IMG/VR virus record: IMGVR_UViG_3300025502_001322
Coordinates: 64,001-128,000 of that record
Source: a virus
Taxonomy: Duplodnaviria; Caudoviricetes
Length of the DNA stretch: 64,000 nt
Reading direction: 5' to 3' (one strand)
Below, piece by piece: positions 20,038 to 46,438 of this stretch. The translations under genes and the position numbers were made by a program. The notes below the pieces were generated by a model, which worked only from the letters and a program-made list of their open reading frames with translations, had not been told where the DNA came from and searched no databases. Within the stretch, counting starts at the first letter, position 1. The number at the start of each line of letters is the position of its first letter.

Positions 20038-20307
20038 ATGTATCTAGTACACCAGTTTGTTATAGACGCCAGTGCGCATTCACTAGTCTCTCACTCTCCG
20101 CATGAACTTGATTTTGAAAGATATGCAGGTTGGGAATTTGTTAGATGGTTGGATGCTACAGAAGATGGAAAGTTATATAAACGACACATTAATTTACCTG
20201 TATCACTAGAACTAATATACAACAACGATAGCGTAGGTGTAAAAGTATATGCACCGTTGACCCAAGAACAAGCAGTATTTTTTGAACTTATAAAAACAAA
20301 TGACTAG
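20038..20307 (+). CDS. Hypothetical protein
   Basis: 89 aa ORF. Confidence 0.5.
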   Translation: MYLVHQFVIDASAHSLVSHSPHELDFERYAGWEFVRWLDATEDGKLYKRHINLPVSLELIYNNDSVGVKVYAPLTQEQAVFFELIKTND

Positions 20308-21310
20308 ACATACCGATCTCCCAGTATTAGTAGTTGGCGGCAATGGTTTCATTGGCAGTCGCATTACACAGAACTTGGTAGCAAGTTTAAAATGGAATCC
20401 TATTGTAGTGGACAATCAGGAAGACTATGGTATACTAGACCGAACCCAACTCAGTAAGCTACACCGACTTAGGCGATGCACAAGACTGCTAGAGAACTCC
20501 AGTTACGATGTACACAATATCAGTATCATGGAGTTTAACAAGATGGAAACTATGTTTAAAAAGTGTCAACCACATAGTGTTATCCATCTTGCCAGTTACC
20601 CAAGACAAAAAGTAGTTAACGCCAATCCTTTAAAGGCAACAGGCGTGATGTGTGATGCACTGGTTAACATGCTAGAGCTTGCAGTAAAGTACCAGGTAAA
20701 ACATTTTATGTACTTTAGTTCAAGTATGGTATATGGTGATTTTAATGACAGAGTTAACGAGAATGCCGTGTGTGCCCCAAAAGGTCAGTATGCCATTATG
20801 AAACACATGGGCGAGCAACTAGTACGTGACTACCATATCAGGCATGGGTTACAATACACAATTATCAGACCCAGTGCTGTATACGGACCTTTAGATGTAG
20901 AAGATCGTGTTGTTAGTAAAATGTTATTAAATGCATTGCGTGGTAAAGAAATACAGGTAAACGGTCCTAATGAAATATTAGACTTTACATACGTAGACGA
21001 CATAGGCAAACAGATTCCCATAGTGCTAAATGCACCCTACACCAACAACGGTATTAATCAAACATATAATTTAACTGCCAGTGAAATTGATGCACGTACA
21101 CTGTTAGACTGTGCAAAAATAATTAAGAAAATCGTACCTGGAACACAAATTGTGATTAACGAGCGAGATCAAAGTTTTCCCCAACGTGGCAGATTAAACA
21201 ACAACAAGATTAATATGTACTTTGAGAACGTTAAAAGAACACCACTAACCACAGGACTAGTGGCATATCATTCCTGGCTTGTCAAGAACTTTGAACTATT
21301 CAATAACTAA
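20300..21310 (+). CDS. NAD-dependent nucleotide-sugar epimerase/dehydratase (extended SDR)
   Basis: GGNGFIG, VIHLA, SSSMVYG, YAIMK (YxxxK), RPSAVYGP, DFTYVDD. Confidence 0.9.
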   Translation: MTRHTDLPVLVVGGNGFIGSRITQNLVASLKWNPIVVDNQEDYGILDRTQLSKLHRLRRCTRLLENSSYDVHNISIMEFNKMETMFKKCQPHSVIHLASYPRQKVVNANPLKATGVMCDALVNMLELAVKYQVKHFMYFSSSMVYGDFNDRVNENAVCAPKGQYAIMKHMGEQLVRDYHIRHGLQYTIIRPSAVYGPLDVEDRVVSKMLLNALRGKEIQVNGPNEILDFTYVDDIGKQIPIVLNAPYTNNGINQTYNLTASEIDARTLLDCAKIIKKIVPGTQIVINERDQSFPQRGRLNNNKINMYFENVKRTPLTTGLVAYHSWLVKNFELFNN

Positions 21311-21322
21311 AATAATACCGCA

Positions 21323-22402
21323 ATGATTCCGTTTACAGACTTATACGCACAGTACCAAGAAGCAAAAACAGAAATAGACCAAGCCTATCACAGAGTAATG
21401 ACTACGTCTAGTTATATTACTGGTCCAATTGTAGATGAATTTGAGACTGCATTTGCTGAGTACGTAGGAGCAGAAGCATGTGCCAGCACAGGTAGTGGTA
21501 CAACTGCCTTACTTTGTGCATTACTAGCATGTGGAATACGAGACGGAGAAGTAATTACGACTCCGTTAACTTTTGTTAGCACTAGTGAATCAATATTATG
21601 GACAGGTGCTAAACCAAAGTTTGTAGACATCGACAACAACTATCAAATAGACGTTGACAAAATAGAAGCAAAGATTACAAGTCATACTCGTGCTATACTG
21701 TACGTCAGCCTTTATGGTCAGACACCTGATGTAGATAGACTACGTGAGATTGCAGACCGATATAACTTATATCTGATTGAAGATGCCGCCCACAGTATTG
21801 GCAGTAGTTATAAGGGCAAGCCTGTTGGCTCACTTGCTGACTTAACTTGTTTTAGTTTTAACCCTGTTAAGAACTTGGGTGCCGCAGGTGATGCAGGCTG
21901 TATTACAGGCAGAGCTGACTTAATTAAACGAGCACGTATGTATAGAGACCATGGTCGCCAAAACAAATGGGATTATGAACTACAAGGTATCAATGCTAGG
22001 ATAGACAATTTCCAAGCTCTTGTAGTATTGGCTAAGTTAAAATATTTAGACTCTTGGTTAACTAAAAAACGTGAAATATGCAACAGATACACCCAAGAAC
22101 TTAAGGATTATTGCCCTACACCTACTGAATTTGCAGACAGTTACCACACATACTATGTTTATGTAATACAAGTACCTGAAAGAGATGCATTTGTCAAATA
22201 CATGCAGGACAACGGTGTTAGTGTTAACGTACACTACCGTGGACCACTGCATAAGCAACCAGTATTTTTATCATACGATGTTTGTCCAAACACAGATAGA
22301 ATTGTGGAAAGTATTGTAAGTTTGCCTTGCTATCACACTCTAACAATAGAACAACAAGACACAATTACAGGATTAACAAAAGCATGGTTAAAGTCGCACT
22401 AG
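21323..22402 (+). CDS. DegT/DnrJ/EryC1/StrS-family sugar aminotransferase
   Basis: SGTTAL, TFVST, IEDAAHSIG, SFNPVKNLGAAGDAG (PLP Lys), NARID, SLP. Confidence 0.93.
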   Translation: MIPFTDLYAQYQEAKTEIDQAYHRVMTTSSYITGPIVDEFETAFAEYVGAEACASTGSGTTALLCALLACGIRDGEVITTPLTFVSTSESILWTGAKPKFVDIDNNYQIDVDKIEAKITSHTRAILYVSLYGQTPDVDRLREIADRYNLYLIEDAAHSIGSSYKGKPVGSLADLTCFSFNPVKNLGAAGDAGCITGRADLIKRARMYRDHGRQNKWDYELQGINARIDNFQALVVLAKLKYLDSWLTKKREICNRYTQELKDYCPTPTEFADSYHTYYVYVIQVPERDAFVKYMQDNGVSVNVHYRGPLHKQPVFLSYDVCPNTDRIVESIVSLPCYHTLTIEQQDTITGLTKAWLKSH

Positions 22403-23268
22403 TAGGAGCAGGCTACTGGGGTAGCAAAATACAGGCTAGCCTAAGTAACAACAAGTCTGTTACAGACACAGTAATTATAGATATTCGGAATGGCGACTCA
22501 CTGGATGACATTCCCATTGAGTACAAGTGTGCTATTGTGGCAACTCCACTTTGGGATCATTTTGATACAGCACGAGAATTATTACAACGTGGCTTTGATT
22601 GCTACATTGAAAAGCCACTTGCAGAAACTAAAGAACATTGTGAACAATTGCGTGACATGTTGGATGATCAGATTCTAATGGTAGGACATATCTTTTTATA
22701 CCATCCAGGATTAGACATTGTCAAACAAAATCTAAATCAGATAGGCAAAGTAAAACACATCACTAGCCAACGTTTAAACTGGGGTATATACCAAACTAAG
22801 ACAACACCATTGCTAAGTTTGCTACCACACGATGTCAGTATTGTGCAAGACATATTAGGCATTGATCACAAACTGCTGAATGTCGTACATAACAGTTTTA
22901 ACAATGACCAACAGCCAGACTATGTAAGTTTTAATTTGCAGTTTGGGGACGTCACATGCAACGTTACAGGCAGTTGGTATTGGCCAGAGCGTGTGCGTAA
23001 GTTAACAGTTATCGGAACTCAGGGACATATTGTCTGGGACGACGTCATAAACATGGTCAGTATCTATCAGGGCACTGTGGAAGATAAAAAACTTACTGAG
23101 TTAACAGTGTTAGATTGTTTAACACCTGACATGTCTGTGACACCATTAGAAAGAGAAATCGATCACTTTATAGATTGTGTTGTTACTAGAAACACACCAC
23201 GTAGCGATGTTAACAATGCTATAGAGGTTGCCAGTTTGCTTGACGAAGTTGCAACTTACCTAGGCTAG
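22384..23268 (+). CDS. Gfo/Idh/MocA-family NAD-dependent oxidoreductase
   Basis: VALVGAGYWG, ATP...H, IEKPLA, MVGH, HDVS. Confidence 0.9.
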   Translation: MVKVALVGAGYWGSKIQASLSNNKSVTDTVIIDIRNGDSLDDIPIEYKCAIVATPLWDHFDTARELLQRGFDCYIEKPLAETKEHCEQLRDMLDDQILMVGHIFLYHPGLDIVKQNLNQIGKVKHITSQRLNWGIYQTKTTPLLSLLPHDVSIVQDILGIDHKLLNVVHNSFNNDQQPDYVSFNLQFGDVTCNVTGSWYWPERVRKLTVIGTQGHIVWDDVINMVSIYQGTVEDKKLTELTVLDCLTPDMSVTPLEREIDHFIDCVVTRNTPRSDVNNAIEVASLLDEVATYLG

Positions 23269-25267
23269 GATCATCCACACTATCATACAAACCTGCAAAG
23301 TGTTCACGCAACCAGGTCCACAAAAAGGCTTGTTGTAATGCATCACTGTCGTCTGCATTAGCACGATAAAATTCTACACCGTCTCTCGCACCACGTGTGC
23401 ACCACTCTGCATAATCACCGTTAGCACTTTTAGTCCAGGTACGTAGTCTATATTCAGTTTCTACATCTTGCGTTTGTGAATTAAACTGTGCAAGTTTTGC
23501 GCCTTCTCTAAATGCAGTACGCCAAGTTTGGTATGGGTTTGTGTTGAATCTAGCAACCGCACTAACCAGTGGAACAACCTCATGTCGAAAACTCAGTGTG
23601 TAGTCTACGCCAAACTGTTTTGCAGATTTTACCATATCGCAATTATACATAACAATACCCATGTGACCATAGCATAGTCCGTTCATGGGATTTTCAGCGT
23701 GGAAGATATAGTGCTTGGGTTGTTGTAAGTAATCCGGAACAACATCAAATTTAAAGTCTGGGTGTAGTTCTGTTTTAGCAAACACCATATAACACCAGGG
23801 AGTTCTACTGATCTCAGCCGCCTGTCGCAGAGCATTTTCCATACCATCAACACCGTGCAGTCTCTGACTAGATGGGAACCGTCCATGTAGTTTGTTCCAG
23901 TTTTCATCAGCATTCGTTTCGTCATAACTTATAAACACAATATCCTGTTTAGATTCCGATAGTGTCTTGTGCTTAGTTATATAAGGGTAGTCGTATACTT
24001 GCTCACTGACGTGTTGTCGCACTTCTCTAGGGACCTGAGCAACCGAGTTACTCTGTGTAAACGTATGCACGTCACGGTCTTTGACGGCCCAGAGCTTGGG
24101 TGTGTGGGATATAGAGCACTCATATGGTGCAAATAGTACGTAGGGATCCGTAAATTGGTTATGATTTACAGCATCTACTAGTGTATCCTGGTTGTATACA
24201 ACTGTAGGCATACTCTCTCTGGGCACGACAACGTCTTCAACATAGTGTACAGTGTCATACCAGTCTAGTAGTTTAATCCTGTCAGATTGTTCTCTGAAAG
24301 ACTCTACATTTACCAGGAAGGTATCACCAAACGTTTGCTCATTACTGGCAAATGCATGCAACATTGTGCTTTGCCAGGTCTCTGGATGCCAGTTAAAATC
24401 AAAATTACTGTAGTCACATAGTGTAGTTACTACCCAGATATATTCTGTAGTAGCCGTGGCACAAATTCGCTTGATTATGTCTAAGTAAGACCCTACAAAT
24501 CGTGTTTTTTTAACCACCAAACCTCTGTTTTTTAGTGTGTCTAACTTTGCTGTAGTGCTATCAGTCATAAAGTCTATTAGATATACTTCAGTGTCTGCTC
24601 TACGTTTAACCTTGCGAGTCATACTAGTATACTTCTTGACTGTGGCACCAGGCACTGTGTACAACAAGCCACTGGTCTTCTGATGCTCAGTAGCAAACTC
24701 ATATATAAATGCTGATTGCGTGGGATCTGGGTGCCAGCTAAAGTCTACATCCTCAATGTCTTTAGGCACAGTCCAGTTTGTCTTATCTGATAGTGCTGTT
24801 ACAACAACGTCGCTTGTAAACTTATTAGGACCCGTACCATAAGTTACTCCACTTGCCCGTTGATGCTGGCTGGGAAAGTGGTATGTAAATTCGGTTTCTA
24901 ATGGATCTGGGTGCCATGTTGTGGCAACCGTTTCAAGGTCTATGTTTTTAGGAAATGTAAACAAGTGCGGATGCTGTAAACGTTCGCACTGTTGATCGAC
25001 GTTGTAGAAATGATCAGCGTTGACATTGCCTTTCTTTACAAGAAAAGTATACCCGTGTTTTTGCCATTGATCACCAAAAACATGTGTAAAGTTTTGCTCC
25101 CAGTTATTAGGACGATAATAGAAGTTAAATTTACGGTAATTGTTACCACCATAAATATACCAGTAGCATGATGTTTTACTTAACTGATCGGCAACCTCCA
25201 ATGACTCCGCAAATTTCTCGTGCGGAAACAAACCGGGCTTAGGTCCAAAATAGAATATATCGTACAT
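23219..25267 (-). CDS. Multi-domain glycosyltransferase-A-like protein with internal WHPDP repeats
   Basis: The C-terminal domain IVFISYDE...RLHGVDG...YGHMG...TWRTAFREGAKL parallels 43254-44177 but lacks its DGD; several upstream degenerate repeats. Confidence 0.6.
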   Translation of the reverse strand: MYDIFYFGPKPGLFPHEKFAESLEVADQLSKTSCYWYIYGGNNYRKFNFYYRPNNWEQNFTHVFGDQWQKHGYTFLVKKGNVNADHFYNVDQQCERLQHPHLFTFPKNIDLETVATTWHPDPLETEFTYHFPSQHQRASGVTYGTGPNKFTSDVVVTALSDKTNWTVPKDIEDVDFSWHPDPTQSAFIYEFATEHQKTSGLLYTVPGATVKKYTSMTRKVKRRADTEVYLIDFMTDSTTAKLDTLKNRGLVVKKTRFVGSYLDIIKRICATATTEYIWVVTTLCDYSNFDFNWHPETWQSTMLHAFASNEQTFGDTFLVNVESFREQSDRIKLLDWYDTVHYVEDVVVPRESMPTVVYNQDTLVDAVNHNQFTDPYVLFAPYECSISHTPKLWAVKDRDVHTFTQSNSVAQVPREVRQHVSEQVYDYPYITKHKTLSESKQDIVFISYDETNADENWNKLHGRFPSSQRLHGVDGMENALRQAAEISRTPWCYMVFAKTELHPDFKFDVVPDYLQQPKHYIFHAENPMNGLCYGHMGIVMYNCDMVKSAKQFGVDYTLSFRHEVVPLVSAVARFNTNPYQTWRTAFREGAKLAQFNSQTQDVETEYRLRTWTKSANGDYAEWCTRGARDGVEFYRANADDSDALQQAFLWTWLREHFAGLYDSVDDPSLGKLQLRQANWQPL

Positions 25268-26405
25268 GTATAACCTTAATAATCACTATGATAGCATATG
25301 GCAACTAACATTGCAACGTTTTAATAACCCACGAATTAATTACTTTATGCCTTTTGGTGCAACTGGGATAGAAGATATTGAGCAACGGTTTGTGAGCATA
25401 GGTGGAGTTGATTGTAGTATCTTTGCGTATGACCAAGAGCCTTTACTAAAGTTATTTAATCCCAGCGTATTCTTTAAAATACAAAGTGACAGTCACGCAG
25501 ACGGGCTAAAGTGGACTATACTACTGAACACAGAATTACATAGTGATCCCAAAGACGATATTCTAAAAAGATTTAGAATGATAGACTGTTATTATTTCCA
25601 CCACGCTCTTGCGGCGGCAGACTGGTACCGAGGAGGCAATTACTGGCATGAGATTAAACCGGTGGCTAGTAGAGTTATTAAAAATAAATTTATTACATTT
25701 AACAGACTAACCAGTAATGACAGGGTGTATAGATCTCTGTTAATTAACGAGTTATATAAACATGACATTCTCAGAGAAGGATTAGTAAGTTACAGTAAGC
25801 AATGCCCAATGGGAGGAGACTATAAAGTAGAAATAATGCATAGCAAACATATCCCAGACGGTTTAAAACTAGAGGCACTGTTTAATATAGGAAAAATAAA
25901 AGACGAGTTAAGGATAGATATACAGGGAGAAATTCCTAATCAAAGTTTTAATATTAGTTGTATTCCAGAATGCATGGAAACATTTTTATATGTTGTTACT
26001 GAAACTTGTTACTGGGGTCGTAAAAAACACCTAACTGAAAAAATATTTAAACCTATAGTCACAATGAACCCGTTCCTACTAGTCGGACCTGCTCATAACC
26101 TTGCATACCTTAAGAGTTATGGGTTTAAGAGTTTTGATAAGTGGATAGATGAATCTTATGATTTAATAGAAGACGATATTAAGCGTATGGAAGCTATAGG
26201 CAACGAACTAAAGCGTATAGCAAGTCTGGATTTTTACCAACTTAAACTAATCTACTATGATATGCAGGCAGTCTTAGAGCATAACAGAGACTGGTTCTAC
26301 AGTCAGGACTTTATTAAGTCAGTACACACCGAACTTATAGATAATTTTACTCAGGCATGTGACGAACTTCAACATCGCACTGCTTTAAAAAATCAACACC
26401 CTTAG
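25266..26405 (+). CDS. Putative glycosyltransferase (GT10-like ET..TEK motif)
   Basis: YVVTETCYWGRKKHLTEKIFKPIV...GFKSF...DESYD; the family call is by-eye inference. Confidence 0.5.
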   Translation: MYNLNNHYDSIWQLTLQRFNNPRINYFMPFGATGIEDIEQRFVSIGGVDCSIFAYDQEPLLKLFNPSVFFKIQSDSHADGLKWTILLNTELHSDPKDDILKRFRMIDCYYFHHALAAADWYRGGNYWHEIKPVASRVIKNKFITFNRLTSNDRVYRSLLINELYKHDILREGLVSYSKQCPMGGDYKVEIMHSKHIPDGLKLEALFNIGKIKDELRIDIQGEIPNQSFNISCIPECMETFLYVVTETCYWGRKKHLTEKIFKPIVTMNPFLLVGPAHNLAYLKSYGFKSFDKWIDESYDLIEDDIKRMEAIGNELKRIASLDFYQLKLIYYDMQAVLEHNRDWFYSQDFIKSVHTELIDNFTQACDELQHRTALKNQHP

Positions 26406-26841
26406 TGTCTCGATATTCCGTTGCATAGTATACTTCTTTTATACCAGCCTGGTATATACCTTTTGCACAATCTAAACAAGGACTGTGCGTGATAAACATT
26501 GTGGCACCTTCACCGCCTCCGTTAGATTTTGCTAACTTCAATAGCGAGTTCATTTCAGCATGAAGTACTTCGGGTTTACTTTTTAACTTAGAATATTTGC
26601 CATAAGCAAATGTCCAACCTGATTCTGTTAATGCAGTATAATCGTGCCATGGATTGTCTTCCATTTCCTCAATGGTGTTTTCGCAATTGTTATCCCAACC
26701 GCTCGGCATTCCATTGTAGCCACATCCTATTATCATGTTGTCTTTTACGACAATAGCGCCTACTTGTAGTCTACGTGCTGTACTACACTCCGCAAATGCA
26801 TGCGCAGTTTTCATATAGGCTTTTGTATGTTTTTCTTTCAT
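26347..26841 (-). CDS. dCMP deaminase
   Basis: VGAIVVKD, GYNG, LHAEMN, SPCLDCAK zinc motifs. Confidence 0.93.
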   Translation of the reverse strand: MKEKHTKAYMKTAHAFAECSTARRLQVGAIVVKDNMIIGCGYNGMPSGWDNNCENTIEEMEDNPWHDYTALTESGWTFAYGKYSKLKSKPEVLHAEMNSLLKLAKSNGGGEGATMFITHSPCLDCAKGIYQAGIKEVYYATEYRDTKGVDFLKQCDVEVRHMPE

Positions 26842-27422
26842 TATAAGTGTTCTTTGTCTATGTAGTTGTGCCAAAATATTAAACTGTACCTAACACTGTT
26901 AGGTACAACATCAAACTCTCTGCTGTGCATGGTTTTTTGACAGTCTTGCATTACCCAACCGTAGTTGTTTCTATAAGGCAAGGTAAACAACAACTCTTTA
27001 TTGTTGTTCAACATACTTGTACCATTTGTTTTATGCAACTCTCTAGTTAGGAATATTTGCCCTTGTGCTTGGCCGGCGTTTTCTTGGTGTGCAAGCAATG
27101 GACCAAACCCGGGGTAGTCAGCCCAAAGATTGCACTGCACGAATTCCATTTTTAGAGGACCTTTTCCCTGTTCTTGTAGGTAAACTTGCATGGGCTGTAA
27201 GAACCGCGGATCACGTAGTATTGACTCTAGTTTTTTAAAAGTGTCAGTGTTGCCTTTGTGTATTTTACGAAGATCAGTCCACTCAGCATACTGCCAATCT
27301 TGGGCATGTGTTTCTGAAGTTTCGCACATGGTCAACAACTCTTCTATTAGATCATCTGGGAAAAAGTTATCCACCAACAGTACCTGCAACTTGTCAGGAT
27401 ACATAAATGTGTTAACTATCAA
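26841..27422 (-). CDS. 2OG-Fe(II) oxygenase-like protein
   Basis: DNFFP start, HQE (HxD/E) motif, NYG, distal H and R (MHS...RYSL). Confidence 0.6.
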   Translation of the reverse strand: MIVNTFMYPDKLQVLLVDNFFPDDLIEELLTMCETSETHAQDWQYAEWTDLRKIHKGNTDTFKKLESILRDPRFLQPMQVYLQEQGKGPLKMEFVQCNLWADYPGFGPLLAHQENAGQAQGQIFLTRELHKTNGTSMLNNNKELLFTLPYRNNYGWVMQDCQKTMHSREFDVVPNSVRYSLIFWHNYIDKEHL

Positions 27423-29423: not shown

Positions 29424-29521
29424 TTGTAGATAAAAGGATCCCTCTTACGAAGTTCTTTAAGTTTTTTACGATATGCTATTTCTAATTTAATCCTGTTTAC
29501 TATATTGCGTAACCATGTCAT
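29420..29521 (-). CDS. Basic 33-aa micro-protein
   Basis: Hand-translated MTWLRNIVNRIKLEIAYRKKLKELRKRDPFIYK; its stop overlaps the next start (ATGA). Confidence 0.6.
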   Translation of the reverse strand: MTWLRNIVNRIKLEIAYRKKLKELRKRDPFIYK

Positions 29522-32719: not shown

Positions 32720-32727
32720 AATCGTAT

Positions 32728-38074: not shown

Positions 38075-39301
38075 TTACCATACTCCATTGTCATTGAGTA
38101 TTTTTCCATACTCAGGAAATATTGTAACATAATCTTCATTTCTATACAAGTCTTTTTCTTTTGTCCAAAACTTAAACTCGTCCCAGGGTGTGTTGACATT
38201 TAACTCTGATTCATCAAATAACTTTGGTTTTGTTTCAAGTAGTTTTACTATAGACGTTACATTATTTTTTCCTATAAGTTCTACATGAGACTCTAAATGT
38301 TCACGCACAATAGGTTTAATTTTGTCTGGTATTACATTTACGCAATAATAACTGGGCCACTGTACAAGTATTACAAACGGTGTGATCTCAATATTGTGAA
38401 ACATCTTAAACTTTACAAACTGTTCATATACTTCATGAAAGTCCCATACATTAATAGCACTTACACATATGACAGGGACGATACTTACACTATAGTTTGA
38501 CTGTTCTTCTAGTTTGATAAAATCACATAGGTTATTATATACTATTTTCCAATCTGCTGGGTGTCTCACGTAGGTTATCTTTTTGCCCACTGCGTCCAGA
38601 CTGATGTTAACAGTTACATTTTTAAAACCAAGTAAAATGTTACGCCAGGCTTCTGTCAACTTATGTGTGCAGTTTGTGCTTATCTTTAGGTCTATGTCTT
38701 TGGCTTTTCCTGAATCAACAATGCGAGTAAGCAGTTTAGGAACCATGTTATCCAACAGTGGCTCCCCACCATACAGTTCTATTTTTTCTAAGTTATCAAC
38801 ATAGTTATATAGGTCATCCAACTGCTCATCTGTAAAATGTTTTTTAAACTTTTCTCTGGTGTATATTGTATTAGACAACCCATGTTTTTCTTCATAGTGT
38901 TTGCCTTCTATGTGGTACAAGTAACTGTCGTAACTTTGACATGTTCTGCAACGCAGGTTACATATATTACTTACTTTAATGTTTAAGTTTTTAGGTCCTT
39001 TAGTGTAATCTGTGTTAACAAAATCAAACAAGGATAATCTACTTAGTTGATTTACTCTTTCACTTCTATGTCCTAATTTTTCTTCCGACCAACATCTCTG
39101 ACACATGTCTAATTGTTCGCCGTTACTGGATCGCTGTCTAGCATCTTCAAGTTCAGGGCTTGCCCAAATCTCCTTAAAAGTTTTATTAGGAAATTTGTAT
39201 GCCCCGCCCCCCAGCGCAGTACATGGGCTATATGATCCTGCAGGATCTACAGTAGCATCTACATAGAATGCTGGGCAGGTGTTTTCATTAAACTTGTGCA
39301 T
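38075..39301 (-). CDS. Radical SAM protein, divergent type A
   Basis: CPAF...PCT...CQRCW; NICNLRCRTC; YGGEP. Confidence 0.85.
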   Translation of the reverse strand: MHKFNENTCPAFYVDATVDPAGSYSPCTALGGGAYKFPNKTFKEIWASPELEDARQRSSNGEQLDMCQRCWSEEKLGHRSERVNQLSRLSLFDFVNTDYTKGPKNLNIKVSNICNLRCRTCQSYDSYLYHIEGKHYEEKHGLSNTIYTREKFKKHFTDEQLDDLYNYVDNLEKIELYGGEPLLDNMVPKLLTRIVDSGKAKDIDLKISTNCTHKLTEAWRNILLGFKNVTVNISLDAVGKKITYVRHPADWKIVYNNLCDFIKLEEQSNYSVSIVPVICVSAINVWDFHEVYEQFVKFKMFHNIEITPFVILVQWPSYYCVNVIPDKIKPIVREHLESHVELIGKNNVTSIVKLLETKPKLFDESELNVNTPWDEFKFWTKEKDLYRNEDYVTIFPEYGKILNDNGVW

Positions 39302-40658
39302 GGTACCTACATTCTGACCACCAGGATTCCATTTCCGGGAAAGTTTCTAAAAAGTTTGTATTTCTACGTTTATCGTGTTCATTGAAAAATAAAAAGAAGT
39401 TTCTCTTTTGTTGTTTAATGTACTCTCCATCCAGTTGTTGGCCTTCTCGCATCCAAGCAATGGTTCTTCGCATACGTTGTACCTCAAAGTCTTTAAAACC
39501 TGTACTGTATTCTATATTCTCTTCCATCCAGTCAGCAACTTCGTCTAGACGTTGTGCATAACTTTCTGGTAGTATTTGTAAACTCTGCCAAGCAGGTTGT
39601 CTAAGTAAAGGAGTATCAAACCAAATTTTATTGTACTCTTTATTGTGTTGACGTCGCAATTCTAATATCCAGCCTAGCAATTTTTGTAATCTGATAACAC
39701 TTAAATTATTCATTGTAATAATAAATGTTAGACTGTTCTTGTATTTAACTTCACGTAGGTAATGCTCTACGTATCCTGTCAAGCGTTGCATTTTTAAACC
39801 ATCACGTATGTACTCTGCTTGTACACCCATGCTGTCTACACTAACATACTGCATAAAGTGTTCTAAGTAGTTGCTCGAACACATCTTCTTAACGTATTCT
39901 ATGTACTTGATAAACAAACCATTCTCAACACTGAAGTTACTGGTAACATTTAAATGTAAATCAGGCTTAGGCAATGCTAACACGTACTCAAACACACGGT
40001 ATGTGTTACGATCCATTAGTGGCTCACCACCAGTCATTCTAAAGTGTTCTAGTTTGGGGTATAGTTCTGGCCACCATTTCCAAAATGCGTCAACATATGG
40101 ATTTTCTTCTCTATTAGGAACAGGTCGCCTGTCTCCCATAAAGTGTTCTGGTGCATTGTGTGGTTGTATTGTTGGGTAAGCACCTTTGTCTTGTACTTCT
40201 TTTGCCCAACTTGAACTAAACTGTGGGCTACAATAACTGCACCTAAGGTTACATGCGTTGTTAAAATTGACTTCCACATAACTAGGTATAACATCTTCTT
40301 GCCAGTCTATTGTGGCAGGATCCATTTGTGCCCAGGGCTCACCTGAACGATAATGTCTATCACTCAAGTTACCTGCATCTTCTATTGCCCAACAGTAACT
40401 ACACTCTTCAGGACGCTTGCCCTCTATCATTAACTTACGTTGTTGTTTTTTATGCTCTGTGTTATGTAGTGCGCTGGGATTCTTTTGTATTGCCGCTAAA
40501 GGTATTTTGTGCAACGGTGGATGATAGCAACTGTTGTTAAGTCCTGTGGGCAGGTGCAAACTTACTTGTTTCCATTTTGCATAGCAAAGACTAGGACCCA
40601 ACTGGTCCTTCATGGCCTCTGCCGCTGACATAAATTCGCTTTGATCGCCTTTTGTCAT
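39288..40658 (-). CDS. Radical SAM protein, type B
   Basis: CYAKW...SCYHP...CSYCW; NACNLRCSYC; TGGEP. Confidence 0.88.
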   Translation of the reverse strand: MTKGDQSEFMSAAEAMKDQLGPSLCYAKWKQVSLHLPTGLNNSCYHPPLHKIPLAAIQKNPSALHNTEHKKQQRKLMIEGKRPEECSYCWAIEDAGNLSDRHYRSGEPWAQMDPATIDWQEDVIPSYVEVNFNNACNLRCSYCSPQFSSSWAKEVQDKGAYPTIQPHNAPEHFMGDRRPVPNREENPYVDAFWKWWPELYPKLEHFRMTGGEPLMDRNTYRVFEYVLALPKPDLHLNVTSNFSVENGLFIKYIEYVKKMCSSNYLEHFMQYVSVDSMGVQAEYIRDGLKMQRLTGYVEHYLREVKYKNSLTFIITMNNLSVIRLQKLLGWILELRRQHNKEYNKIWFDTPLLRQPAWQSLQILPESYAQRLDEVADWMEENIEYSTGFKDFEVQRMRRTIAWMREGQQLDGEYIKQQKRNFFLFFNEHDKRRNTNFLETFPEMESWWSECRYHAQV

Positions 40659-41632
40659 ACTACTCTTCTCTTTGATCCGTTACGTCTAACATCAAGTGTT
40701 AAACAATGTATACCGGCTTCCCAAAACATGCCGTGTCTTACGGGAACATGGTGTACTGTTATGCCATGTGCTTCTACTTCAGGTAACTCTATACTACTTA
40801 CAATGTTTTCGCTGTCCACAACTAAAACGTTACTTTCAAATGCTGTGTCTTGTGCGAGTCCTTGCCACTGTTCCAGCCACGTAAATAAATTTTTCCTGTT
40901 ACCCTGTTGTATGTCTTTTAAACTTTCACTATACTTGAAAGTTCTATTGTTTAGTTCTATAATTGTTTTGCTACGTAAGCATTGTGGTACCCACGAGATG
41001 TCAACACAAAACACTGTGTCATCATCCGTCATGTAAAAGCCTTGATCTATGTGGCCCCATCGACCTTGTCTTGTGTCTACGTTTTTTACTAGAGTGCCTT
41101 CACAGTTTCTCTCCATCCAGTCATACCCATTTTGGTTACCCGGACCGTAGTCATTAATAATTATGCTATCACCTGCCTTAAACATTGTAGCAGTGTGCCA
41201 TAACAATTTATTTTTATATTCGTGATGATACGGTGTGGCAACCATTTGGTAGGATAACTGTTCTAGTATAGGCGGTGGCTGACTTAACCAGTTATGTCCT
41301 TGCATAAACAGTTGTGCAAATACATCATAATAACATAAGCCGTCCCAGTATCTATCCTTCATACTTGTATATGTTTGGTATACACAATCGCCATATACCA
41401 AATACTGATCACGTGGCACAATAGGATATATTTGACTAGGCTGTAGATCGCCTATTGTTGGGCGGTGTACTTTAATGCCTAACTTAGTTAAGTAGTTGGC
41501 TAAGTTATCTAAATCCTCTTTTGTTTCTGTTAGTATTTTATCTAACTCAGGCACGCCTGGATATGTAGGTCTGCAATCTCCTACTATAACTTCTTCAAGT
41601 GGATCCCATTCAGTCCAGACTGTCACCAACAA
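40655..41632 (-). CDS. Amidinotransferase (glycine/inosamine-phosphate amidinotransferase family)
   Basis: TEWDPLEEVIVG, PRDQ, GHID, GIHCLTLDVRR (catalytic Asp/His/Cys pattern). Confidence 0.88.
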   Translation of the reverse strand: MLVTVWTEWDPLEEVIVGDCRPTYPGVPELDKILTETKEDLDNLANYLTKLGIKVHRPTIGDLQPSQIYPIVPRDQYLVYGDCVYQTYTSMKDRYWDGLCYYDVFAQLFMQGHNWLSQPPPILEQLSYQMVATPYHHEYKNKLLWHTATMFKAGDSIIINDYGPGNQNGYDWMERNCEGTLVKNVDTRQGRWGHIDQGFYMTDDDTVFCVDISWVPQCLRSKTIIELNNRTFKYSESLKDIQQGNRKNLFTWLEQWQGLAQDTAFESNVLVVDSENIVSSIELPEVEAHGITVHHVPVRHGMFWEAGIHCLTLDVRRNGSKRRVV

Positions 41633-42086
41633 TCTCCTTTAAGTATTCTGGTTCCCAAAATGTATAATAATCTGTTTTTGCTAACTGCGTACGTGCGCCT
41701 AGTAGTTTCTGTTTATTTTGACACAGTATTAACTTATACTTGCCGTTATTAGTCTGCACACCGTTAATGTGTGTTTCTTTTTCACTGTCAGGTAAAAATA
41801 TCATATCAGGATATTGTTCTGCTAATCTAGCACAATGCTCTTTTAGTTCGTTGTGTGTCAGCGGGTTGTTATGACTTAACTTCTGTTCACTACAGATTAG
41901 TATCAGTACATCACACTTAATGTCTGGCAGTTCTTTAAGGTCTCTAATTTGTACATTAACTGCTCGCATCTTAGCCAGGTGTGCATAAGGACAAACACGA
42001 TTGCCGCCTAATTCTTCGTAAGGCATTACTAAACGTTTAATCCAGATTAATAGATGATTTTGTTGTTCATGTGTTGCTAAACGCAT
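41610..42086 (-). CDS. Hypothetical protein, DUF1415-like CPYA motif
   Basis: LGGNRVCPYA. Confidence 0.55.
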   Translation of the reverse strand: MRLATHEQQNHLLIWIKRLVMPYEELGGNRVCPYAHLAKMRAVNVQIRDLKELPDIKCDVLILICSEQKLSHNNPLTHNELKEHCARLAEQYPDMIFLPDSEKETHINGVQTNNGKYKLILCQNKQKLLGARTQLAKTDYYTFWEPEYLKEIVGDSLD

Positions 42087-43254
42087 TGTCTAACCTTTCG
42101 TTTAACTCGTCCCAATAACCATTATCTTCTATACCGACAGGAACACATAATGTTAAATGATTATTGTCATAATAACATCCTAATCCGCTGGGCATTATTC
42201 CACTCTCTAACAACTTAAGTTGTGTTATTGGGTTAACTAGCTCAACACTACACAAAATACCTTTGTGCCAGCCTTGTTTAATGTGACCCTTTGTTAGCCT
42301 CTCAGTAATTAAACTGTTGAACCTAGAAGTAATATTATTAAAGGCTGTTTCTTCTGGCCAATGTCTCCAGATCCAGTTTGCGGCATCAACTCCTGCCATG
42401 TTAGGACTCCAGGTGTGACTAAAACCAAACTTCGCACTTACTGATCTTGTGATATCCTCGCTCATACACACTGTGCTTAGTGGTGTGTATCCACCAGTAA
42501 TACTTTTACCACTTATTACCAGATCAGGTAAGATGCCCTGTGCATTGTGTGTAAATCGTGTACCTGTTTTACCATAGCCGCCCATGACATCATCAACAAT
42601 CAGTAAACATTCATACTTGTCGCACAACCTACGCACTTCATGCCACCAGGAATCCGACCAGGGGCGCAATTTTTCTATCCAGGGTATGGACTCCATAAAC
42701 ACTGTGCCGATATTGTGATTATTCTTTAATAGATCCTCTACCTGTTGTAAAGCGGCATTTTCATGATGTTGTCTTGCGACTATAGTTGGCCATATACCAG
42801 TATCCACAATGTGGCACCAGGGAACCTCGAATTCACCACGTAATATACTAGGCAAAAGACTTGTACCACTATACCCTGGTGCAAAACATATTATTTCCTG
42901 TCTATTGGGATTATGTTTTTTAAAATACAAATCTTTAAGGTAAAACGCAAGCTCTACGGCATCAGTACCACTAACTGCCCATGCTACACTGTGTAATCCA
43001 CTTTCCTGTGTGATATTGTTGGCAAGTAAATCTACAGACTCGGTGCTTTCGCTTGCCTTGTAGTTTACCCATGATACTTTATTTGTTATACCATGTACTG
43101 CCCAGAGTATATTCCAGTGGTTGTATCCCCAGATAAATGTCTGATTGCCACAACTGATGTCAAACAATCTTCCAGCATTGGTGTCACAATACCACCTGTC
43201 TTGTTTGCTTACGAGTAAGTTTACTCGATCATCGGTTAACTCTGCTAATTCCAT
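42067..43254 (-). CDS. Class III PLP-dependent aminotransferase
   Basis: SGTDAVE, FMES, LIVDDVMGGYGKTG, PDLVISGKSITGG, HTW. Confidence 0.9.
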   Translation of the reverse strand: MELAELTDDRVNLLVSKQDRWYCDTNAGRLFDISCGNQTFIWGYNHWNILWAVHGITNKVSWVNYKASESTESVDLLANNITQESGLHSVAWAVSGTDAVELAFYLKDLYFKKHNPNRQEIICFAPGYSGTSLLPSILRGEFEVPWCHIVDTGIWPTIVARQHHENAALQQVEDLLKNNHNIGTVFMESIPWIEKLRPWSDSWWHEVRRLCDKYECLLIVDDVMGGYGKTGTRFTHNAQGILPDLVISGKSITGGYTPLSTVCMSEDITRSVSAKFGFSHTWSPNMAGVDAANWIWRHWPEETAFNNITSRFNSLITERLTKGHIKQGWHKGILCSVELVNPITQLKLLESGIMPSGLGCYYDNNHLTLCVPVGIEDNGYWDELNERLDNAFSNT

Positions 43255-44177
43255 TACCAGCCTTCAACAATCCTGATAATGTCTATTTCTCTGGTCATGG
43301 GCTTTATGTTAAAATGTTTTCCGGTTAGGTGATGCTTTAGAAATTTACTTTGCTCTGCATCTAGTGTAACAATTGGCAGTCCTAATCGTTTTGATAGAAC
43401 AGTTTCCAATATCTTACTGTGTTCTACTGGGTCGTTGTCTTTAACTGACTCCCATAACTTTTCTAGTTCCACAAAGTCTTGTACACGCTTGTAAGGCCAG
43501 TCTTCCAACATGGTCATGTAAGTACCAAGTCGTGCGCCATACATTGCCCAGATGCCGTTAGTTATGTCCTGTCCAACACTTTGCCAAATACATAACTGAT
43601 CGTAATTCCTATTGTTTACTTTTTTATCAAACTCCAACAGCGATGGTTTAACTCCACGATCCAAACACATCTTTACACCTTCTCTAAATCCTGCTCGCCA
43701 TGCTTGAAAAGGTGTTTGGTTAGGATAGGTAGTACTATAACAATTATGCATTGCCAAATATCGTTTGTCGAAACAAAACTCCACTGCGGTATCATCACTA
43801 CCGTCTGAGTTTTCGTGTGTGCGCATATCGGCAACAAAGTCTTTTGTCCAGCAACTGATACCACCATTGCCATACATAAGTCCGTTTATCTCATTGCGGG
43901 CTCTCCATCTAAACACACAGTCTCGATTTGTATCATCTAGCTCTAACTGTATGTTAAAGAAGTCTGGATCAGGCAAGTTGTCACCGTCTATTAACACAAA
44001 CCTATATGTGTCACTTGCTTCACCTGCGGCTTTGTGTGCATTATCACTGCCTTGCACACCGTCCACACGTTTGGCCCAAGGTACTATGTTTTGTATTTTA
44101 ATCCAGAACTCTTCCTTCTTGGGCTCGTCATACGTTAAAAATATGACATCTAAATCTGCTACATCAATAATGTCCAT
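43254..44177 (-). CDS. GT-A fold glycosyltransferase-like protein
   Basis: VIFLTYDEP, RVDGVQG, LIDGDN (DxD), YGNGG, AWRAGFREGVKM. Confidence 0.7.
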   Translation of the reverse strand: MDIIDVADLDVIFLTYDEPKKEEFWIKIQNIVPWAKRVDGVQGSDNAHKAAGEASDTYRFVLIDGDNLPDPDFFNIQLELDDTNRDCVFRWRARNEINGLMYGNGGISCWTKDFVADMRTHENSDGSDDTAVEFCFDKRYLAMHNCYSTTYPNQTPFQAWRAGFREGVKMCLDRGVKPSLLEFDKKVNNRNYDQLCIWQSVGQDITNGIWAMYGARLGTYMTMLEDWPYKRVQDFVELEKLWESVKDNDPVEHSKILETVLSKRLGLPIVTLDAEQSKFLKHHLTGKHFNIKPMTREIDIIRIVEGW

Positions 44178-44529
44178 GGTCCCAATACTCCGGATTGTTG
44201 TCATCAGGAAATGCTAGGTTGTTACGCATAACACTGTAGCCTGAATTGCTTGGTTTTAGTAATTTAGTCTTTACCTTATGTGGTATATCTGTTATCGTGC
44301 CGTCCTTAATAATACAGTTATGTAACTTATGCATAACTGTATTATATTCGTTCCAGTTCATTTCCAAACAAGGACCAGTGGGGTCTCCCGGTTCATTATG
44401 AACTTGCTTAGTTACTTCTCCTTCACTATTATAATATATTCTGTATGTTTCTACAATAGCTTTAGGTGGAATAAACTCAGTTACGGCTTTGGAAAATTCG
44501 CTCCAGGCTTTGGATTGCTTGTCTGACAA
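44164..44529 (-). CDS. Hypothetical protein
   Basis: 121 aa ORF in the operon. Confidence 0.6.
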   Translation of the reverse strand: MSDKQSKAWSEFSKAVTEFIPPKAIVETYRIYYNSEGEVTKQVHNEPGDPTGPCLEMNWNEYNTVMHKLHNCIIKDGTITDIPHKVKTKLLKPSNSGYSVMRNNLAFPDDNNPEYWDHGHY

Positions 44530-45328
44530 ACTCTTTGTCCTTTATAAAATAATGCACAGGATACATCTGCTTTTGTGTGTTCAAACTTAACACCCCATCA
44601 TTGCCAAACTGTGCTAGTACATGATCTTGCCAGTTTAAATTAGGATGCCAACTGTTAACTGCACCTTTCATATGCACAAAACTTGGTATAGCATGTGGTA
44701 AATAACACCGTTCTTCTCCTACTAGCTTTGCTGTTACTGCATATGCAACGTCGGTACTAACCCTATCTTCCCTACAATTTTTAAGTATTCTATCTCTGAA
44801 TCTTGGCCAATGTTGGTATACATACCTTAGTTGCCGCCAGAACTCCTGACTGGTATGCCCATACCTAAAATAACTAAATCCGTTGTACGTGTTTAATAAA
44901 TTATTTTCCACAAACAATTTACGGTAAGTCATCGTGTTATTGATGTTGCCTTCCCAGTCTCGTATATTTGTACAAATGCAGACCTCACGCTCCTGCATTG
45001 CAGACCACCAATGATCTATGTTGGTGGTTAATAATATGTCTGATTCAATTTTTACTGTCTCCTTGAAGGGAGTCAATGGACCCACCTGCCATTCGTTGGC
45101 CAGTTTCCAGTCATCATCGACGGCATCGTCCTGTTGTAAATCAATTACATGGTCAAATACAGCCAGGTACTTTTCCTTCATTGCCAGTCTGGTTTGTTTA
45201 TCAACCAGTACTGCATAGTTGGTATATTTTTTCTGTGTTAGTTTAATACTCAGAGCCTGCAGATACGCTAACTCTAAGTAGTCAGTAGTACTATTGTTCT
45301 GTGCTATTGTCACGTACCCTGATGTCAT
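44477..45328 (-). CDS. GT8-like glycosyltransferase, paralogue 1
   Basis: GYVTIAQN...YLELA...TPFKETVKIESDILL...DVAYA...HMKG. Confidence 0.6.
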   Translation of the reverse strand: MTSGYVTIAQNNSTTDYLELAYLQALSIKLTQKKYTNYAVLVDKQTRLAMKEKYLAVFDHVIDLQQDDAVDDDWKLANEWQVGPLTPFKETVKIESDILLTTNIDHWWSAMQEREVCICTNIRDWEGNINNTMTYRKLFVENNLLNTYNGFSYFRYGHTSQEFWRQLRYVYQHWPRFRDRILKNCREDRVSTDVAYAVTAKLVGEERCYLPHAIPSFVHMKGAVNSWHPNLNWQDHVLAQFGNDGVLSLNTQKQMYPVHYFIKDKEFVRQAIQSLERIFQSRN

Positions 45329-46155
45329 ATAAAATCCACTAACGACTTTTTATCCATAATATGTATGTCTTGTCGGACCCTGCCTACATAGTTATGCTTT
45401 TGTTTTTCGTAGACATATTTTATCCCACGTTCATTGTAGTCAATGATCTTTGCTCTAGATGTCAGTGTGGGCAATGCCCATGGTATGCTATATGTATTTG
45501 TGCCATAGCCTCCCAGTATGTGTAATGCTATACTAAGTGCAAAATCGTTCCTAAATACTTTGCGGTTAAATTGGTATAGTGATGAATAATACTCCCAGTG
45601 TTCTTTAACTAACTTCATCATCGTAAATACATTTTCTGAAAAGTTGCACTTGTCGAACAAAACTGCTGTTGCCCATACCATTGGTATAGTGTAACTGTTT
45701 AACCTCTTGTCGGAGTTATATAAGTTCTGCCCGGTAACATCTAACACACTGTAGTGACATGTAAATTCAATATCCAGATCAAACAATTTTTTGTAGTTGT
45801 TTGACATTATCAAGTAGTCAGCATCTAGTAAAAGTGTCCGATCAAAAGGCGTTAGGTCATATGCATCACTGCGACTGCCATTTATCCAGGGAGTTGACAA
45901 TGATTCGCCGTTAAAGTAAAACACCCTTTTGTTCGTGTCTTCAGTATTATCCATGATGACATGGTCAAACATGGTGGTGTCTGATTCATCACGTGTCTTG
46001 GTGTCAGTAATTACTGCTACTGGTAACTGTAAATGTTCTTTTATCAATCCACAATTATGTTGTGCTATGCGCATGTAATCCAGTTTAGAATTACGTGCGA
46101 ACATTAGTACACCTTTAGACTTGGGTTGCTCGCCTGGTTTGTTTGAGTTGCTCAT
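45325..46155 (-). CDS. GT8-like glycosyltransferase, paralogue 2
   Basis: KGVLMFA...YMRIA...TPFDRTLLLDADYL (DxD)...RNDFA...HIMDK. Confidence 0.65.
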   Translation of the reverse strand: MSNSNKPGEQPKSKGVLMFARNSKLDYMRIAQHNCGLIKEHLQLPVAVITDTKTRDESDTTMFDHVIMDNTEDTNKRVFYFNGESLSTPWINGSRSDAYDLTPFDRTLLLDADYLIMSNNYKKLFDLDIEFTCHYSVLDVTGQNLYNSDKRLNSYTIPMVWATAVLFDKCNFSENVFTMMKLVKEHWEYYSSLYQFNRKVFRNDFALSIALHILGGYGTNTYSIPWALPTLTSRAKIIDYNERGIKYVYEKQKHNYVGRVRQDIHIMDKKSLVDFI

Positions 46156-46438
46156 ATTCTACATGGTATGCATTAATCTTTTGTTGGTATGATTGTTTAG
46201 CATATTCTAATAATGTTGTTCTTTGTACCTGAATAGGATTTTCGTAGGTGTCTACCATATAGATAGTGTCCTCTTCCCAGGCATTTAGAAATGCTATTAG
46301 ACCTTGATCTGCCTTAAACATACCACCATTGTGTGCAACGTATAGATCTGAATCTATACGTTCTTTAAGATTCTTTTTTGCTACAGCAAGTTCGAAACGA
46401 GCCTGTGCGAACTGTTCTAATTTATCTACTTTGTCCAT
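46115..46438 (-). CDS. Hypothetical protein
   Basis: 107 aa ORF, first gene after the structural genes. Confidence 0.65.
   Translation of the reverse strand: MDKVDKLEQFAQARFELAVAKKNLKERIDSDLYVAHNGGMFKADQGLIAFLNAWEEDTIYMVDTYENPIQVQRTTLLEYAKQSYQQKINAYHVEYEQLKQTRRATQV

Follow-up and report, generated by a model that had tools for sequence, protein, structure and literature searches.

Glycosylation of particles by virus-encoded enzymes affects immune recognition and stability. It is an established feature of a few giant viruses and, more recently, also of mycobacteriophages, whose virion glycosylation was reportedly described by Freeman et al. in Cell Host Microbe in 2023 (cited in PMC12619734). 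The mycobacteriophage systems place cytoplasmic glycosyltransferase genes beside the structural genes and feature Ser/Thr-rich structural proteins. They comprise few glycosyltransferases and, to our knowledge, no radical S-adenosylmethionine (SAM), aminotransferase, amidinotransferase, SGNH or carbamoyltransferase tailoring enzymes. In the glycosylation of the chlorovirus PBCV-1 capsid (A64R) and in the mimivirus fibril clusters, sugar-nucleotide synthesis by a dehydratase/epimerase and a DegT-type aminotransferase is combined with soluble GT-A-fold transferases in the cytoplasm. Features of both kinds are found in a locus at positions 20300-46438 of a 64,000-nucleotide window, which covers bases 64001-128000 of the 289,070-bp single-contig IMG/VR virus record IMGVR_UViG_3300025502_001322. 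The locus is real, conserved and widespread in a jumbo-phage clade and is very probably a glycan-tailoring system, whose radical SAM component would be unprecedented in virus-encoded glycosylation. Unlike the mycobacteriophage systems, the locus operon has its own sigma-70-type promoter and its glycosylation activity is a predicted one, while PBCV-1 and mimivirus differ in being eukaryotic viruses without radical SAM enzymes and the likeness to A64R is one of fold only (E ~1e-3, TM (template modelling) score 0.3-0.4).

Near-identical sequence occurs in 20 runs, all of them salt-lake DNA metagenomes, and matches to PHROG tail-fibre, virion and T4-like replication proteins identify the virus as a jumbo tailed phage. 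A megablast search of 12 kb of the locus against the phage collection matched nothing. In an initial annotation of the window, the locus had been proposed to make a heavily modified glycan or small molecule, and the building and tailoring of a glycan or pseudo-oligosaccharide is supported by synteny in 59 contigs, by swappable sugar cassettes and by the neighbourhoods of the radical SAM genes. Given the conserved gene order, the sugar-nucleotide cassettes and the nucleoside diphosphate (NDP)-sugar enzymes that accompany N-twitch radical SAM genes at two out of four further genomic sites, the locus is very probably a glycan synthesis and tailoring system. Within it, the minus-strand genes from 46438 down to 26347 overlap or are separated by at most 171 bp, as the description of a same-strand run of mostly abutting or overlapping genes had implied.

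The comparison set consisted of 59 related IMG/VR jumbo-phage loci, in which the conserved order begins with the tail fibre gene, a V334/V333-type gene, X107, GT8a, GT8b, a gene for a protein of ~120 aa and GT-A. It continues, after zero to eight variable genes, with the radical SAM genes R7, R5, R4 and R3, zero to three further variable genes, R1, X384 and the SGNH protein genes, and ends with genes for a carbamoyltransferase of ~494 aa, a kinase, a nucleotidyltransferase, a deoxycytidine monophosphate (dCMP) deaminase and X682. Synteny across related jumbo phages had been put forward as a check, and the order is kept in the 59 contigs, with scattered non-syntenic homologues not being seen. 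The variable cassettes of the relatives encode a UDP-glucose dehydrogenase with an epimerase, a hexapeptide acyltransferase, and an epimerase with a DegT fragment placed between the radical SAM genes. The products of the fibre-adjoining genes (V334, X107, GT8a and GT8b) are far more diverged (median 31-41% identity) than GT-A and the radical SAM proteins, while a Spearman test of GT8 against fibre divergence across the loci gave no usable signal.

Seven tandem radical SAM genes had been annotated at 31400-40658, and the products of all seven score above the curated cut-off of 170 bits for NCBIfam NF033640, the 'twitch domain-containing radical SAM protein' family (N_Twi_rSAM), over nearly the full model. 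Like other members of this family, all seven carry an N-terminal four-Cys auxiliary-cluster module upstream of the core CxxxCxxC motif, and residues C86, C146, C149, C200, C204 and C207 (R4 numbering) are invariant across R1 to R7. All are encoded on the minus strand. Five form core orthologue groups with median identities of 64-70% in the relatives, namely R1 (31400..32719; 305.7 bits; CC subtype; median 67% identity), R3 (34088..35299; 334.8 bits; median 64% identity), R4 (35286..36749; 400.5 bits), R5 (36731..38074; 294.6 bits; SC(H/Y)H subtype; 51% identity to a protein of the cultured Ralstonia phage RsoM2USA) and R7 (39288..40658; 318.2 bits; 33% identity to the radical SAM protein encoded next to GT-A in RsoM2USA). 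The most conserved of these is R4, present in all 59 loci at 54-77% identity. The two extras are the accessory R2 (32728..34098; 207.1 bits), with orthologues in five loci, and the lineage-specific R6 (38075..39301; 260.4 bits), whose best match in a relative is at most 30% identical. R6 was probably inserted into the array recently, and it lies in the stretch of lowest GC in the window (0.355 at 38001-40000, against ~0.40). With pairwise identities of 18-31%, R1 to R7 are, as judged from their sequences, old paralogues.

The family as a whole is expanded in this clade, with 13 members above the cut-off in this genome, which include the five conserved orthologue groups, six to 12 in the relatives and two in RsoM2USA. 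Hundreds of metagenomic contigs, the longest reaching 368 kb, carry orthologues of R4 at 65-85% identity, and more than 6000 metagenomic proteins match one radical SAM orthologue. Outside the window, four genome places hold six further copies that exceed the cut-off and one that falls short of it. At ~196-213 kb three N-twitch copies, one of them below the cut-off, occur with a GDP-mannose 4,6-dehydratase (E 1e-118), a second DegT protein, a FkbM methyltransferase and a carbamoyltransferase, and at ~279-287 kb two copies occur with a UDP-glucose/GDP-mannose dehydrogenase and an amidinotransferase-like paralogue. Of the remaining copies, one is located at 218 kb among unannotated neighbours and one between the primase and helicase genes. 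The NDP-sugar enzymes at two of these four places, together with the sugar genes interleaved in the arrays of the relatives, point to sugars as the substrates, on which the radical SAM enzymes probably act. No paper on NF033640 was found in the literature and the family has no assigned function, while no sequence-level match of the radical SAM proteins to solved structures was found. The sugar-nucleotide neighbourhoods, with six to 13 copies per genome in the clade, provide the first coherent biological context for this large family. Close to the third of the radical SAM loci (genome 274991-277021 and 270544-272918), the phage also encodes an adenylate/guanylate cyclase with a CHASE2 domain, a FecR-domain protein and a protein containing PA14 and curlin repeats.

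About five glycosyltransferase-like proteins had been listed in the locus, of which two GT8-like enzymes and one GT2-like enzyme stand by fold or homology. Since these proteins had no family match, two of them were modelled by folding, with AlphaFold2 applied to orthologue alignments of GT8a and GT-A. GT8a (45325..46155, minus strand; pLDDT (predicted local distance difference test) 81) is a GT8-like retaining GT-A glycosyltransferase whose Foldseek matches in the PDB include UGGT, GlyE, glycogenin, LgtC and XXYLT1 (E ~1e-6, TM score 0.4-0.5), and the combined PDB and Swiss-Prot lists are dominated by the GT8 clan (glycogenin, GlyD/E/F, LgtC, galactinol synthase, LARGE and UGGT). The D111-x-D113 motif and H265 are invariant in 19 orthologues, and these three residues are predicted to bind metal. 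GT8b (44477..45328, minus strand; found in 46 loci) aligns with the GT8a profile in hhalign (E 1e-4 over 184 columns). Neither protein matched Pfam PF01501 even at E<=10, the hhalign comparisons between GT8a and the E. coli proteins WaaJ and WaaO were non-significant, and a profile search with the GT8a alignment listed close orthologues that all lacked annotation. As a sequence match to the family model is absent, both are labelled GT8-like by fold only.

The core GT-A protein (43254..44204, minus strand; pLDDT 87.7) is a GT-A-fold, GT2-like glycosyltransferase with a helical C-terminal domain, in which a strand at residues 68-73 is followed by the DGD motif D73-G-D75, and it is 63-81% identical in 48 loci. 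Its Foldseek matches include the BcsA GT2 domain, PBCV-1 A64R, SunS and TarP, with a weak match to a glycosyltransferase of mycobacteriophage Che8. VIA-align Z values were middling (<=8.2), and the Foldseek and VIA matches listed were mostly GT-A glycosyltransferases, the rest being nucleotidyltransferases of the same fold (RmlA, MobA and IspD). The structural neighbours of the glycosyltransferases thus include enzymes which glycosylate proteins or virions, namely UGGT, GlyD/E/F, glycogenin, PBCV-1 A64R and, weakly, the Che8 enzyme. When the alignments of GT8a, GT-A and X384 were used as profiles against the PDB, nothing meaningful was matched by sequence, and in the protein atlas GT-A led only to unnamed viral clusters and X384 to nothing. 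Of the other two candidates, X682 (23219..25267, minus strand; syntenic in 13 relatives) consists of ~430 aa of uncharacterised N-terminal sequence and a C-terminal domain that is homologous to GT-A (BLASTP 29% over 163 aa, E 8e-17) and lacks a DxD motif, while X379 (25266..26405, plus strand) has no Pfam or PHROG match. X379 belongs to a family of five in the genome, with paralogues at genome 26808, 212792, 267274 and 273862, and it may be glycosyltransferase-like. Members of the X379 family also occur inside the variable cassettes of the relatives.

Nearly all the enzymes inventoried in the initial annotation were recovered in place by Pfam, NCBIfam and PDB sequence searches, and the epimerase, DegT, Gfo/Idh/MocA and class III aminotransferase assignments and one GDSL/SGNH assignment were confirmed by Pfam. 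Three genes on the plus strand code for a NAD-dependent NDP-sugar epimerase/dehydratase (20300..21310; PF01370, E 7e-37), the nearest solved structures of which are UDP-glucose 4-epimerase and dTDP-glucose 4,6-dehydratase, a DegT-family sugar aminotransferase (21323..22402; PF01041, E 3e-102) and a Gfo/Idh/MocA oxidoreductase (22384..23268; PF01408, 38 bits against a cut-off of 24). The open reading frame of the latter opens at TTG 22327, ATG 22384 being the likely start, and its solved homologues were matched at E 3e-10. The DegT protein matched PDB 7b0d (1.7e-84), QdtB (6e-67) and WbpE (8e-64), and by sequence it is closest to the NDP-3-keto-sugar aminotransferases; 7b0d is deposited as a scyllo-inositol transaminase, although this PDB name is possibly automatic. 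The DegT match and the adjoining Gfo/Idh/MocA gene are shared with NDP-3-amino-sugar synthesis of the WbpB/WbpE and QdtB type, but no WbpA, WbpD or WbpI partners were identified within the window, and the Gfo/Idh/MocA protein is only weakly matched.

A variable cassette on the minus strand comprises a class III (BioA/ArgD-like) aminotransferase (42067..43254; PF00202, E 5e-39), which fell below all NCBIfam equivalog cut-offs, X158 (41610..42086; phrog_10325, E 1e-18), found among the relatives only in locus L016, and an amidinotransferase of the StrB1/AGAT family (40655..41632). The annotated identity of the amidinotransferase is borne out by its match to PDB 1bwd, the inosamine-phosphate amidinotransferase StrB1 (E 1.7e-22), with three aligned stretches that include the C-terminal catalytic-Cys motif H-C-x-T-L-D-V-R-R; further matches were to HsvA, AGAT and SxtG, and no Pfam match was obtained. 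The trio occurs in one other locus, the amidinotransferase being present in one of the 59. Of the two SGNH proteins that had been annotated, both on the minus strand, the first, an SGNH/GDSL hydrolase or acyltransferase (28797..29423), is recognised by Pfam (PF00657, 30 bits against a cut-off of 23.6, and also DUF6071), and the second (29487..30299), which has no Pfam match, is SGNH-like through its homology to the first (BLASTP E 8.5e-6 over 265 columns). A 2-oxoglutarate (2OG) oxygenase had also been claimed; for this accessory protein, X193 (26841..27422, minus strand; in three relatives), the sole support is a language-model lead to viral PF13640 clusters in the protein atlas (score 0.94-0.95) with no Pfam match, making it a probable 2OG-Fe(II) oxygenase of the PF13640 type. 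In 46 relatives a NodU/CmcH carbamoyltransferase of ~494 aa is encoded between the SGNH genes and the kinase gene, and in this genome it has moved to 203426-204901, in the second sugar and radical SAM locus (~203 kb).

A smaller version of the fibre-adjoining module is found in RsoM2USA (344 kb), where a fibre gene encoding a V334-like C-terminus is followed by X107, GT8a, GT8b, a gene for a small protein, GT-A, an N-twitch radical SAM gene and a second GT-A gene. The shared proteins are 30% (GT8a), 32% (GT8b), 37% (GT-A) and 33% (radical SAM) identical. ORF355 encodes the fibre, ORF353, ORF352 and ORF350 are glycosyltransferase genes and ORF349 is the radical SAM gene. The module directly follows the genes for the tail sheath (ORF359) and a giant structural protein (ORF361), and the sheath gene is separated from ORF356 by an epimerase-like gene; the sheath, the giant protein and ORF356 have all been detected in virions by mass spectrometry (PMC8504454). 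With its minimal fibre, GT8, GT8, GT-A and radical SAM module, this cultured phage represents a tractable model. The 'moraphage' lineage (PMC12619734) was also considered, but seems to be a different lineage because radical SAM genes are not mentioned there.

Taken together, the block from 46438 to ~28797 and the plus-strand trio at 20300-23268 may constitute a self-contained cytoplasmic system that builds and tailors an oligosaccharide. Three soluble GT-A-fold enzymes, two GT8-like and one GT2-like, would lay down the glycan from nucleotide sugars, with the plus-strand cassette, through a 3-oxidation/3-amination pair and the epimerase/dehydratase, supplying or altering sugars. The class III aminotransferase would introduce an amino group and the StrB1-type amidinotransferase subsequently a guanidino group, the SGNH enzymes may add or remove acyl groups, and in the relatives the NodU/CmcH carbamoyltransferase would add a carbamoyl group. 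The five conserved and two extra radical SAM enzymes might each act on one position of the sugar carbons, as dehydrogenases or epimerases, the analogy being with two twitch enzymes, BtrN and HygY. BtrN is a dehydrogenase and HygY an epimerase, both being carbohydrate-acting twitch radical SAM enzymes of aminoglycoside pathways. Shared with the locus proteins are the radical SAM core with one auxiliary 4Fe-4S twitch cluster and the context of aminotransferases, glycosyltransferases, carbamoyltransferases and amidinotransferases, but their twitch domain is C-terminal, whereas that of the locus proteins is N-terminal. Both enzymes are named in PMC10991966.

The most likely acceptors of such a glycan would be the Ser/Thr-rich distal fibre domains of the V334/V333 type, which would give the virion a glycan coat. 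V334 and V333 (46528..48549, minus strand), the candidate fibre-tip domains encoded immediately upstream of the operon, contain 27-28% Ser+Thr against a mean of 13.5% in the 35 proteins examined, four virion neighbours included, in agreement with the earlier description of Ser/Thr-rich virion proteins at this place. They are paralogues (43-51% identity) of the last 310 aa of a 3652-aa virion protein encoded past the window end (genome 119654-130612), so that a single distal fibre domain is present three times in the genome. The N-terminal 20 residues of V334 and V333 are identical. Of the 42 loci with X107, 34 have a V334/V333-type gene immediately upstream of it, and none was found in the other eight within the stretch covered. 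Beyond them lies the tail-fibre gene (48559..50046, minus strand), identified by PHROG tail-fibre and virion matches. The attachment of the product to virion proteins, also part of the original proposal, is plausible in light of the soluble enzymes and of the fibre adjacency that reaches out to RsoM2USA, while the separate promoter of the operon speaks against it. A fibre or other virion protein could well be the glycan acceptor, though somewhat less than even weight is given to this. It is possible, if rather tentative, that the radical SAM paralogues edit a fibre-attached glycan, each oxidising, epimerising or otherwise reworking one sugar position. If true, a rare-sugar coat would be made from ordinary host UDP-sugars by new enzymology, with a layer of radical chemistry that has no counterpart in described glycosylation systems. 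Virion glycosylation would then extend to a widespread clade of uncultured jumbo phages, and receptor-binding proteins could be diversified or shielded by a new viral means.

The 89-bp gap between V333/V334 and the operon (46439-46527), upstream of X107, contains a terminator-like hairpin (46482-46501) with a T-run, followed by a sigma-70-like promoter (TTGACT, 17 nt, TAAAAT), the two together spanning 46445..46501 on the minus strand. In the relatives, a strict TTGACN, 16-18 nt, TANANT promoter is present in 17 of 28 distinct gaps, as compared with 0.2% of random windows, and 25 of the 28 gaps fold at <=-12 kcal/mol. The -10 box is located inside the hairpin loop in many of the relatives, an arrangement suggestive of a terminator, promoter or operator combined in one element. 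The same promoter type precedes folE, in the 7-deazaguanine cluster, and the second sugar locus. The motif ATAAATA is probably a T4-like late promoter element, with 33 of 67 genomic copies lying <=45 nt upstream of a start on the same strand, and it is under-represented in the window (13 copies against 22.7 expected). It precedes the fibre gene, at a distance of 25 nt (50071-50077), as well as further large structural genes, and no tailoring gene is preceded by it. A further copy in the window is found at 52596-52602 on the minus strand. The view that the tailoring locus is joined to the virion module is thus upheld in part: the adjacency is conserved, but the operon's own promoter and hairpin and the lack of ATAAATA argue against it.

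Several observations weigh against a virion glycan. A conserved sigma-70-type promoter, placed after a terminator-like hairpin, precedes the tailoring operon itself, and ATAAATA is absent there; the operon may therefore belong with the early or middle genes, as may the phage nucleotide and DNA-modification genes that share this promoter type. The fibre adjacency may mirror modular gene order rather than function. The fold matches of the glycosyltransferases are moderate (TM score ~0.3-0.5, Z <=8.2), none of these proteins reaches the Pfam threshold, and GT8 also covers lipopolysaccharide (LPS)-core transferases that need no export partner. Lastly, the chemistry of NF033640 is wholly uncharacterised, and SPASM/twitch radical SAM enzymes more often modify peptides.

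Of the other explanations, remodelling of the host envelope survives best. The soluble enzymes could modify lipid-linked glycans of the host (LPS core, O-antigen or capsule precursors) at the cytoplasmic face and leave their export to the host, a possible but doubtful function to which the LPS-core transferases of GT8, with LgtC among the fold matches, the resemblance of the DegT and Gfo/Idh/MocA pair to the WbpE/WbpB and QdtB surface-sugar pathways, and a promoter that suggests expression before or independent of the structural genes all lend weight. Superinfection exclusion, or keeping progeny off debris, during a long infection would be conceivable uses, on the same doubtful footing. Islands in T4-like cyanophages (S-SCSM2R ORF302-310 and P-SSM2), which are lytic myophages with the same mixture of glycosyltransferase, DegT, radical SAM and amidinotransferase genes, likened here by family names only, have been read as cell-wall or cell-surface modification or antibiotic genes, without tests (PMC12801897). 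The linkage to fibre genes could also reflect a common tie to the host receptor glycan. However, no membrane primer, lipid-carrier, ligase, flippase, polymerase or export gene was found among the 11 genes that match curated families, the 17 unmatched genes not being screened further, and the membrane-spanning segments found in the hydropathy scan are confined to a single 109-aa protein without an ortholog in the relatives, unlike what is expected of a surface polysaccharide locus dependent on undecaprenyl phosphate (Und-P), whether of the Wzx/Wzy or the ABC type. Moreover, the core is conserved across phages of probably different hosts, while host acceptors vary, and the RsoM2USA module is embedded in a block of tail genes.

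A further prospect is that of a phage-borne secondary-metabolite pathway for a free, aminoglycoside-like pseudo-oligosaccharide. This would be a sugar or cyclitol bearing glycosyl, amino, guanidino and carbamoyl groups, directed at the host or at competing phages either after release or within the cell. The StrB1-type amidinotransferase, the DegT protein with its 7b0d match, the Gfo/Idh/MocA oxidoreductase and the kinase parallel the logic of aminoglycoside synthesis, as do the NodU/TobZ-type carbamoyltransferase of the relatives and the twitch radical SAM enzymes, a type to which BtrN and HygY belong. Such a product is nevertheless improbable, as genes for a cyclitol synthase, an exporter or self-resistance were not seen, only one of the 59 relatives shares the amidinotransferase cassette with this window, the name under which 7b0d is deposited could be automatic, and the conserved core consists of glycosyltransferases and radical SAM enzymes beside fibre genes.

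It is likewise hard to credit that the radical SAM enzymes mature the fibre proteins directly, by cross-linking, epimerisation or C-H functionalisation of the kind that SPASM/twitch maturases perform on peptides, with glycosylation as a separate process. Their below-cut-off NCBIfam matches are to the peptide maturases PapB, SkfB and XyeB, and their genes adjoin structural genes, but V334, V333 and both fibre proteins contain no Cys residues, which excludes thioether chemistry on these neighbours, and the minus-strand gaps, none longer than 171 bp, leave no room for a precursor-peptide gene. Furthermore, it is NDP-sugar enzymes, not structural proteins, that neighbour the radical SAM genes at two of the four other places, and the arrays of the relatives are interleaved with sugar enzymes.

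The phage DNA, finally, was considered as a substrate, with the glycosyltransferases and tailoring enzymes decorating a modified base and so blocking restriction, as phage glycosyltransferases classically act on DNA, phage carbamoyltransferases can act on 5-hydroxymethylcytosine, the promoter type is that found before folE in the 7-deazaguanine cluster, and the last genes of the operon, which lies 300 bp away from a thymidylate synthase gene, encode a kinase, a nucleotidyltransferase and a dCMP deaminase. DNA is unlikely to be the target, with very little weight left to it, in that the single thymidylate-synthase homologue of the genome is 45% identical to E. coli ThyA with the P-C-H flanking the catalytic Cys aligned, no hydroxymethylase or TET-type oxygenase was seen (the 2OG lead being accessory and of the PF13640 type), small phages that lack the locus likewise encode the kinase and nucleotidyltransferase, and characterised DNA glycosyltransferase clusters combine a thymidylate-synthase-like hydroxylase with glycosyltransferases that, as tabulated, match GT-B-type structures (PMC13326640), whereas the locus enzymes are of the GT-A type.

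The glycan system is flanked at its distal end by further minus-strand genes. The kinase and nucleotidyltransferase pair had been correctly annotated, the former being a P-loop, adenosine phosphosulfate (APS)-kinase-like protein (28394..28828; PF01583, E 6e-10; phrog_10255 positions 2-116) with homologues in the phages Sano, Salvo, DLP6 and RsoM2USA, and the latter a member of the cytidylyltransferase superfamily (27419..27871; phrog_10255 positions 123-228, E 1e-16) with the motifs WHPGH and ISATEIR (HxGH and ISxTxxR). The two correspond to the halves of PHROG 10255, which are fused in the Xylella phage Sano (245 aa) but separate here and in RsoM2USA, so that domain fusion or fission accounts for the arrangement; the idea that the kinase gene had been split by an insert was dropped for the same reason. 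The motif of the nucleotidyltransferase presumably resembles that of archaeal-type nicotinamide mononucleotide (NMN) adenylyltransferases, hinting at cofactor salvage rather than sugar activation. Together with the dCMP/cytidine deaminase (26347..26874; PF00383, E 9e-22; syntenic in 19-22 relatives), the pair probably belongs to unrelated nucleotide or cofactor metabolism outside the sugar pathway. The kinase and nucleotidyltransferase genes are real, but their earlier inclusion among the tailoring components does not agree with this probable role in nucleotide or cofactor metabolism.

Among the uncharacterised proteins of the locus, for which Pfam gave nothing at E<=10, X384 (30274..31428, minus strand) is a conserved core protein, the gene of which always adjoins R1 and is present in 53-54 of the 59 loci. 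It has no Pfam, PDB or known-domain match, and its family numbers 581 representatives at E<=0.001 in a library of 1.8 billion proteins. X384 also forms the C-terminal half of some metagenomic fusion proteins of 712-775 aa, the N-terminal 400 aa of which are uncharacterised; Pfam recognises no domain in these fusions, and none of the locus proteins is matched by their N-terminal parts. X121 (44164..44529, minus strand) is a small conserved protein encoded between the glycosyltransferase genes, with a protein of 113-141 aa at this position in 43+4 loci, and X107 (46115..46438, minus strand), a small helical protein, is the product of the first gene of the operon and is found in 42 loci and in RsoM2USA. 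The 109-aa protein with four hydrophobic segments (28043..28372, minus strand), encoded between the kinase and nucleotidyltransferase genes, had one weak partial match, over less than half its length, in one of the 59 loci (tblastn). In size it is comparable to small flippase subunits of the GtrA/SMR-like kind, although nothing else matches it. This gene, the dCMP deaminase gene and the promoter with its hairpin were absent from the initial annotation.

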